Source: a virus
Taxonomy: Duplodnaviria > Heunggongvirae > Uroviricota > Caudoviricetes
Reading direction: 5' to 3' (one strand)
Length of the DNA: 35,721 nt
Virus record (IMG/VR): IMGVR_UViG_2713896776_000006
Both the position numbers and the translations under genes were made by a program. Positions 2,016 through 34,215 of the stretch are shown here, in pieces; within the stretch, counting starts at the first letter, position 1, and each line of letters begins with the position of its first letter. The notes beneath the pieces were generated by a model. The model was not told the origin of the DNA. It did no database searches and saw only the letters and a list, made by a program, of their open reading frames with translations.

Positions 2016-2060
2016 GTTTAGATCTCAATAGTATTTGGTTTAGATGTAGATTGTTTAGTG
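2016..2060. promoter_or_regulatory. Divergent Pc/Pe promoter-operator region with direct repeats gtttagat (2016..2023, 2038..2045) and gtttagtg (2053..2060)
   Basis: 8-bp direct repeats 22 bp apart seen in the C-cox intergenic region; P2 C repressor is known to bind direct repeats flanking the early promoter. Exact operator boundaries not determined. Confidence 0.45.
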
Positions 2061-25383: not shown

Positions 25384-26109
25384 CTATTGCCTTTTTTTCA
25401 GGTCATCAAGAATGCTCTGCTTTTCGGCAACCAACATTTTGTACACATCATCATCACTTTTAAGATTAAATTTGAAATGCGATCGTCCCACAGATATGCC
25501 GGATACGCCTTCAATCCACATATCCTTGGCTATTTTTTCATCTGAGTCATCTAGGGCATTTTCAGAAATCTTATCAAGGGATGAGAGGATATCCCCATGC
25601 AACTGTAACAATTTTTTATATGTGATTGATGGCGAATTTTCCTTCCTCCGAGAGATCAAGCTTAGATCATTAATCTGGGCGTTAACGCGATCAATAATAC
25701 CAAAAACTCCTAAGCGAGCCTCAACTGACTTGCGCTCAGATTTATGTTTTGCGCCTGTTTGAAATAACAGCTCGGAGTTAATATACGAACCTAGATCATG
25801 TGCATCTTTCACCATGGTTCTAACACCCTCACTAAAGTGTGGGTATCCGATAACTAGCCCCCCCAGTAGTGGGATGATCTTACCGTAAGCGGTGATTTTC
25901 GCGATGATTGAGCCTTCAGAGAACTCAACTGTTATCTCTACCTCACTTCCAATAAAAAAAGGTATTCGGCTCTTCGCAAAGGCAGTTATTTGCTTCTCAA
26001 TCTCATTGATTCTTAGTTTCTTATCTTGAGGGGTCGCATTTTTTAACCACTCAGGATTAACATGAACATACGATTGAGAAATGATATTCCCTGATACATA
26101 GTTTGCCAT
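25384..26109 (-). CDS. Cargo hypothetical protein (241 aa), unknown function
   Basis: ORF with GGAG SD 5 nt upstream of ATG; AT-rich; no motif I can assign. Confidence 0.6.
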   Translation of the reverse strand: MANYVSGNIISQSYVHVNPEWLKNATPQDKKLRINEIEKQITAFAKSRIPFFIGSEVEITVEFSEGSIIAKITAYGKIIPLLGGLVIGYPHFSEGVRTMVKDAHDLGSYINSELLFQTGAKHKSERKSVEARLGVFGIIDRVNAQINDLSLISRRKENSPSITYKKLLQLHGDILSSLDKISENALDDSDEKIAKDMWIEGVSGISVGRSHFKFNLKSDDDVYKMLVAEKQSILDDLKKRQ

Positions 26110-34188: not shown

Positions 34189-34215
34189 AAAAAATAAGCC
34201 CGTGTAAGGGAGATT
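34189..34215. repeat. attR core: 27-bp direct repeat identical to 478..504
   Basis: Exact identity with the left copy; overlaps the 3' terminator of the sRNA gene on the minus strand. Confidence 0.8.

Follow-up and report, generated by a model that had tools for sequence, protein, structure and literature searches.

In bacteriophage P2, the immunity repressor C targets two 8-bp direct repeats, O1 and O2, which lie 22 bp apart (center to center) and flank the -10 hexamer of the early promoter Pe (PMC1904268). When O1 was changed to ATCCGAGT, a multi-base mutant, C binding and repression were both lost, and a lone half-site was not bound by P2 C (PMC1904263). Taken together, these two results indicate that C binds cooperatively. 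With point mutations in O1 and O2, repression remained, with CAT activity at 24% of the fully derepressed level, and the gel shifts were unchanged (PMC1904268), which leaves room for additional contacts. The crystal structure of C is a symmetric dimer, and in the accompanying model each half-site is occupied by one dimer, one HTH of which recognizes the octamer; the contacts of the other HTH, about one turn away, are less specific (PMC2995052). As summarized in an earlier report, the DNase footprint of C takes in both half-sites and continues for about 12 nt beyond O2, which corresponds to about +16 of Pe; it consists of four patches, which were read as four monomers, and the patch past O2 was ascribed there to the dimer bound at O2, as its second monomer, and not to a third operator (PMC1904263). 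That report puts the overlap between the transcripts from Pe and from the opposing promoter Pc at about 35 nt (PMC1904263). C is reported to upregulate Pc at low concentrations and to downregulate it at high concentrations (PMC3448106), and the downregulation at high C has so far been explained only by proximity. Cox, the second regulator of the switch, recognizes boxes with the consensus TTAAA(G/C)NC(A/C) and a phasing of 10 to 11 bp (PMC3936717). For the question of how direct repeats are read by a symmetric HTH dimer, P2 C serves as the model.

The DNA analyzed here, which we call the window, is a single stretch of 35,721 nucleotides. Alignment revealed that positions 1600 to 2420 of the window are 99.9% identical to bacteriophage P2 (AF063097/NC_001895) and that the sole differing base in the 191-bp switch is at 2037. 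The 27-bp P2 att core is found at 478-504 and again at 34189-34215; with an att core at both ends, the window contains a complete integrated P2-type prophage, whose length between the att cores is about 33.7 kb. Identity to P2 ends on the left at position 477. On the host side, just outside the left att core, positions 1 to 318 encode a 105-aa putative lipoprotein whose signal peptide ends with a Cys motif resembling a lipobox. Within the prophage, the gene for the tyrosine integrase (584-1597) lies to the left of the C immunity repressor gene, an open reading frame of 99 aa on the minus strand (1713-2012; Pfam HTH_3). The encoded repressor shows 100% identity to P2 C (tblastn) and matches the "C protein" of PDB 2XCJ/2L49 over its full length. 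The cox gene, an open reading frame of 91 aa on the plus strand (2127-2402), matches Pfam Phage_Cox with an E value of 5.5e-48, and its product matches PDB 4LHF over the full length. These data confirm the window as a P2 prophage whose switch is intact and wild type.

The gap between C and cox measures 114 bp and contains the repeats that are the subject of this analysis. On the plus strand, GTTTAGAT occurs at 2016-2023 and at 2038-2045, 22 bp from start to start, and it is absent elsewhere on both strands of the 35.7-kb window. By number alone this is unremarkable, since at least two exact copies of an 8-mer per window were found in 19 of 100 shuffles; it is the placement of the two octamers, not their copy number, that matters. 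Transfer of coordinates from the GenBank P2 record by alignment (window coordinates are those of locus L001 plus 99) brought the AF063097 features "O1 repressor binding site" (25894-25901) to 2016-2023 and "O2 repressor binding site" (25916-25923) to 2038-2045. A preliminary description of this DNA, made from its letters, had reported the repeat twice at 22 bp and had proposed that a P2-type repressor binds such direct repeats. The copies proved to be exact, and binding of P2 C to two 8-bp direct repeats is documented (PMC1904268, PMC1904263, PMC2995052). Comparison with the P2 immunity region placed the repeats exactly at O1 and O2 of AF063097, and we saw no misalignment that would speak against the assignment. 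We conclude, with a probability of about 0.9, that the two GTTTAGAT octamers are the O1 and O2 operator half-sites of the C repressor in a P2 prophage immunity switch and that a third, similar copy farther downstream is neither a separate operator nor a Cox box. The identification of O1 and O2 is already known, as these are experimentally mapped and annotated textbook sites; with the octamers, one of the most thoroughly studied immunity operators outside the lambdoid phages has been found again, and nothing new is added to it.

The promoters can be placed around these half-sites with the same annotation. The Pe -35 hexamer, TTGACA, lies at 2006-2011 on the plus strand (AF063097 annotation by alignment and a consensus scan), and its 3' end shares two base pairs with the C start codon, which lies on the opposite strand. 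The Pe -10 hexamer, TAGTAT, lies between O1 and O2 at 2029-2034 on the plus strand (GenBank annotation and consensus scan). An independent consensus scan returned Pe as TTGACA-17-TAGTAT. The start of Pe is at about 2042, a position that follows from equating about 12 nt downstream of O2 with about +16, as given in PMC1904263, and that is contained in O2. On the minus strand, the AF063097 annotation gives the Pc -10 hexamer (TATAAT) at 2084-2089 and the Pc -35 hexamer at 2104-2109, and Pc starts near 2076 of the window. The two octamers had originally been described as lying between divergent C and cox; this is right for the genes, but the promoters Pe and Pc converge and stand face to face.

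How would C act at this switch? C binding, repression of Pe, cooperativity, and the footprint are taken here from the literature on the P2 sequence, to which the switch is identical save for position 2037, outside the half-sites, and the same behavior is to be expected by analogy. Two C dimers would bind cooperatively, one per half-site, 22 bp or two helical turns apart and on the same face of the DNA, and would thereby straddle the Pe -10 hexamer and start site. The dimers would bend the DNA and block Pe, so that cox and the lytic genes are kept off. A second, less specific HTH contact made by each dimer would give rise to the four-patch footprint, with patches at O1, at the spacer, at O2, and over the ~12 nt past O2. 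On the window, this last patch would correspond to approximately 2046-2057, based on the distance of about 12 nt given in PMC1904263.

At the other promoter, we observed three phased Cox boxes on the plus strand that together span 2076-2103 and cover the Pc -10 hexamer: TAAAAGGCA at 2076-2084 with one mismatch to the consensus, TATAAGACA at 2086-2094 with two, and TTAAACGCA at 2095-2103 with none. Position 2054 roughly keeps the phase of the boxes starting at 2076, 2086, and 2095, but the positions in between do not match. As a separate observation, the reverse complements of O1 and O2 on the minus strand, CTAAACACC (2013-2021) and CTAAACCAA (2035-2043), fit the Cox-box consensus with one and two mismatches, respectively; such Cox-like matches might help Cox to spread onto Pe at high concentrations.

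For comparison across relatives, we assembled a set from IMG/VR and metagenome searches, comprising about 100 P2-class loci and about six related lineages. The C proteins of these lineages are 82 to 87% identical to P2 C, with residues 13 to 50, including the HTH, essentially invariant and showing minor substitutions only, and they remain colinear with window positions 2000 to about 2100. O1 matched at 8 of 8 positions in all relatives except one locus, and O2 matched at 7 or 8 of 8 in all. Position 2037, which lies immediately 5' of O2 between the Pe -10 hexamer and the start site, is G in the window and A in reference P2. The G is a minority natural allele, carried by 4 of the 100 P2-class loci, and in the related lineages the base is G, A, or T; G at 2037 is most likely neutral. 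Two further positions vary commonly among the P2-class loci: 2092, the N position of the second Cox box, is A or G (G in 46 of 100), and 2117, in the ribosome-binding region of cox, is likewise A or G (CTAGAGGA versus CTGGAGGA; G in 39 of 100). Over a longer range, the mismatches between the window and reference P2 cluster in int (1025-1115) and resume from 2505, after cox, with 2037 as the only difference in 1362-2504. This clustering is suggestive of mosaic exchange surrounding an immunity module with near identity to that of P2. A scan of 596 Gb of contigs with the 15-mer GTTTAGATCTCAATA was discarded, as it gave at least 120 chance matches in unrelated taxa and the pattern was too short.

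The preliminary description had also noted a third variant of the repeat 15 bp after O2 and had offered two explanations for it, an extra operator or part of the Cox site. The variant is indeed there: GTTTAGTG lies at 2053-2060 on the plus strand, 15 bp after O2 and 37 bp from O1, inside the ~35-nt stretch in which the Pe and Pc transcripts overlap. It is out of helical phase with the 22-bp pair formed by O1 and O2. A match of 6 of 8 positions anywhere in the 81 bp from O2 to the cox ATG occurred in 45% of shuffles, and the exact hexamer GTTTAG in that 81-bp interval occurred in 3.3%; all three plus-strand copies of GTTTAG in the window fall within the switch. The resemblance thus measured is weakly beyond chance. 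In the related lineages, the octamers at 2053 are GTTCGGTG, GTTTGATG, GTTAAGTG, GTTGGGTG, GTTAGGTG, GTTTTGTG, and GCTTTGTG, with 4 or 5 of 8 positions matching; over all relatives, the range is 4 to 6 of 8. Among the 100 P2-class loci, singleton SNPs numbered three in the third copy (all different), one in O1, and none in O2. Neither of the two explanations offered is supported by these data, for reasons that we return to below.

What, then, accounts for the sequence at 2053-2060? Most of it overlaps a perfect 8-bp inverted repeat, in which 2054-2061 (TTTAGTGC) is complementary to 2072-2079 (GCACTAAA). On the plus strand, the repeat can be drawn as a stem-loop at 2054-2079 in which TTTAGTGC(T), at 2054-2062, pairs with (G)GCACTAAA, at 2071-2079, around a loop at 2063-2070. 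This places it between about +13 and +38 in the leader of the Pe (cox) transcript, with its core at the 5' end of the Pc transcript. We scored covariation over 19 distinct P2-group sequences, which represent few independent lineages: in the 9-pair stem (2054-2062 with 2071-2079), 87.7% of cells were paired, compared to at most 54% in controls in which one arm was slid. Compensatory double changes were found at three pairs, 2057-2076 (AU, GU, GC, and UA), 2058-2075 (GC, AU, and GU), and 2061-2072 (UA and CG), and the observed covariation score was reached by none of 500 shuffles. RNAalifold recovered the stem, which is also present in the minimum free energy fold of the Pe leader. The fold z-score was about -3 for a 58-nt stretch (in P2 and in lineages L089 and L111) and -1.36 for the whole 90-nt leader. 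We found no Rfam family matches within 1600-2500 at E values up to 1, and no description of the stem-loop in the accessible literature.

These results support the idea that the stem-loop is kept paired by compensatory changes across P2-group lineages. Its role would most likely be that of an RNA hairpin in the early (cox) leader; since its core would also lie at the extreme 5' end of the Pc RNA, either strand is possible. The sequence of the third copy is, more likely, mainly the 5' arm of this conserved inverted repeat. Two other functions for the inverted repeat were considered and rejected. Its arms are 18 bp apart from center to center, compared to the ~10 to 11 bp of a palindromic site for a single C dimer, and it does not resemble a terminator, as it lacks a T-run and the scan found no terminator.

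The alternative that best survives alongside this reading is that the third copy has no function and resembles O1 and O2 by chance, in a leader that is rich in A and T and in G and T. We consider this possible, but a minority reading. In its favor, nearly half of the shuffles of the 81-bp interval contain a match of equal quality, and the third copy is variable in relatives and in natural P2 prophages. However, its bases belong to an inverted repeat that is kept by compensatory changes, and the stretch is probably constrained for that reason, though not as a C site.

A different octamer in the same region fits the spacing of the operators better. Exactly 22 bp after O2, at 2060-2067 on the plus strand, lies GCTTGGAT, a candidate degenerate third half-site that matches at 6 of 8 positions and is, for now, hypothetical. 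One potential reading is that this in-phase octamer is a weak C half-site that would be occupied by a third dimer at high C and, lying at +10 to +17 of Pc, would mediate negative autoregulation of Pc. Several comparisons are consistent with such a site. At the same position, relatives carry GTTTAGAA (L111 to L116), GTTTAGTA (the L090 group), or GTTTAAAA (L089 and L092), which match at 6 or 7 of 8 positions while the flanks diverge. In each P2-group lineage, the in-phase position ranks first or second among about 75 downstream offsets; for this analysis, the automated picker of O1/O2 pairs, which was run on about 30 immunity classes and returned non-operator pairs in many of them, was used for the P2 operator group only. 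The octamer is free of SNPs in the 100 P2-class loci. In L287, a more distant class with a C protein 70% identical, O2 reads ATCTAGAT and the octamer at the in-phase position reads ATCTAGTG, so that the octamer covaries with its own O2, and in L291 three sites are spaced 21 plus 21 bp, the third being GGTTGGAT. Such a site could also underlie the reported downregulation of Pc by high C (PMC3448106).

Other observations weigh against an in-phase site. The published C footprint ends at about 2057, short of 2060 (PMC1904263), and the authors of that report call secondary sites very unlikely, though they say so for WPhi. The octamer overlaps the stem and loop of the hairpin, which could alone explain its conservation. 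The lineages share descent and do not count as independent; L287 and L291 each stand for a single example, and a search for informative further relatives of these two found none. There are also other immunity classes without a third copy. An in-phase third site is described in no open-access paper. On balance, the existence of an undescribed weak third half-site, embedded in the stem-loop between O2 and the start of Pc, seems doubtful to us, and we put it forward as a tentative reading of sequence comparisons; the stem-loop may also tune the early mRNA or the C mRNA. If true, the in-phase half-site and the leader stem-loop would be concrete, testable elements for how C dimers read DNA and how Pc is autoregulated. 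For P2 specialists, the stem-loop and the in-phase repeat are modest leads.

In immunity classes outside the P2 group, inspection by eye revealed varied extra elements downstream of the second repeat in the C-cox intergenic region (L292/L293/L296/L299, L317, L301, and L294). In L292, an inverted copy appears to form a 10-bp inverted repeat with O2; in L317, O2 appears to be one arm of a tight palindrome, GTTGTTGG-TAAA-CCAACAAC; and in L301 and L294 there appear to be three direct repeats about 19 to 20 bp apart.

A genuine third C half-site at 2053-2060 itself, that is, an extra operator extending the repressor array, is highly unlikely. In its favor, the third copy shares GTTTAG with O1 and O2, and the three plus-strand copies of this hexamer are confined to the switch. 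The published footprint continues past O2 to about 2057 and covers the first five bases alone of the third copy, which could make a weak contribution to C binding, and residual repression and binding are retained when O1 and O2 carry point mutations (PMC1904268). However, an offset of 15 bp from O2, about 1.4 turns, means that the third copy does not face the same side of the helix as O1 and O2. Relatives in which the HTH of C is invariant and O1 and O2 are conserved vary in their octamer at 2053, and natural P2-class prophages carry three different SNPs in it. Destruction of O1 abolishes all C binding, in a construct that may or may not have contained the third copy (PMC1904263), and a third repeat is absent from the operators of WPhi, L-413C, and phiT5282H, each of which consists of two perfect copies.

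Least likely of all is that the third copy belongs to a specific Cox binding site, even though Cox protection extends over 70 bp or more around Pc and spreads toward Pe at high concentrations (PMC3936717) and the first good Cox box (2076-2084) shares bases with the 3' arm of the inverted repeat. The region 2053-2060 has at least three mismatches to TTAAA(G/C)NC(A/C) on either strand, and no 9-mer overlapping it comes within two mismatches of the consensus. Good boxes occur instead at 2076-2103, and Cox would reach 2053-2060 only through nonspecific spreading of its filament at high Cox and not by recognition.

The closest known system is the O1/O2 operator of phage P2 (immunity class I, P2-like coliphages), which has the same half-sites, the same 22-bp spacing, the same flanking of the Pe -10 hexamer, the same C and Cox, and the same convergent Pe and Pc; the window differs from it at 2037 alone. 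The Cox-box array of P2 at Pc occupies the same intergenic region, with three phased boxes at 2076-2103 as described in PMC3936717, and the third copy lies upstream of that array, without a match to the consensus. WPhi and P2 Hy dis follow the same principle, in which a small HTH repressor acts on two direct repeats by Pe, opposite a Cox-controlled Pc (PMC1904268). The half-site sequences of both differ from that of P2, and in WPhi the half-site is 10 bp long and the spacing is 34 bp (PMC1904268); we confirmed the WPhi repeats, TATTGGTGAC, as two copies in the sequence. WPhi C also binds a single half-site, whereas P2 C does not (PMC1904263). In P2 Hy dis, the spacing is 26 bp and, unlike in P2, the repeats flank the -35 hexamer (PMC1904268). 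More distantly, OR and OL of lambda, with CI and Cro, likewise form a bistable lysis-lysogeny switch in which a repressor binds cooperatively to adjacent sites that overlap an early promoter. Lambda has three 17-bp inverted-repeat operators common to CI and Cro, and its promoters are divergent (PMC1904263). No lambda-type inverted-repeat sites of about 17 bp were found at the switch in the window, where the only inverted repeat is that at 2054-2079. P2 differs from lambda in having two direct 8-bp repeats for C, a separate array of Cox boxes, and promoters that stand face to face (PMC1904263).
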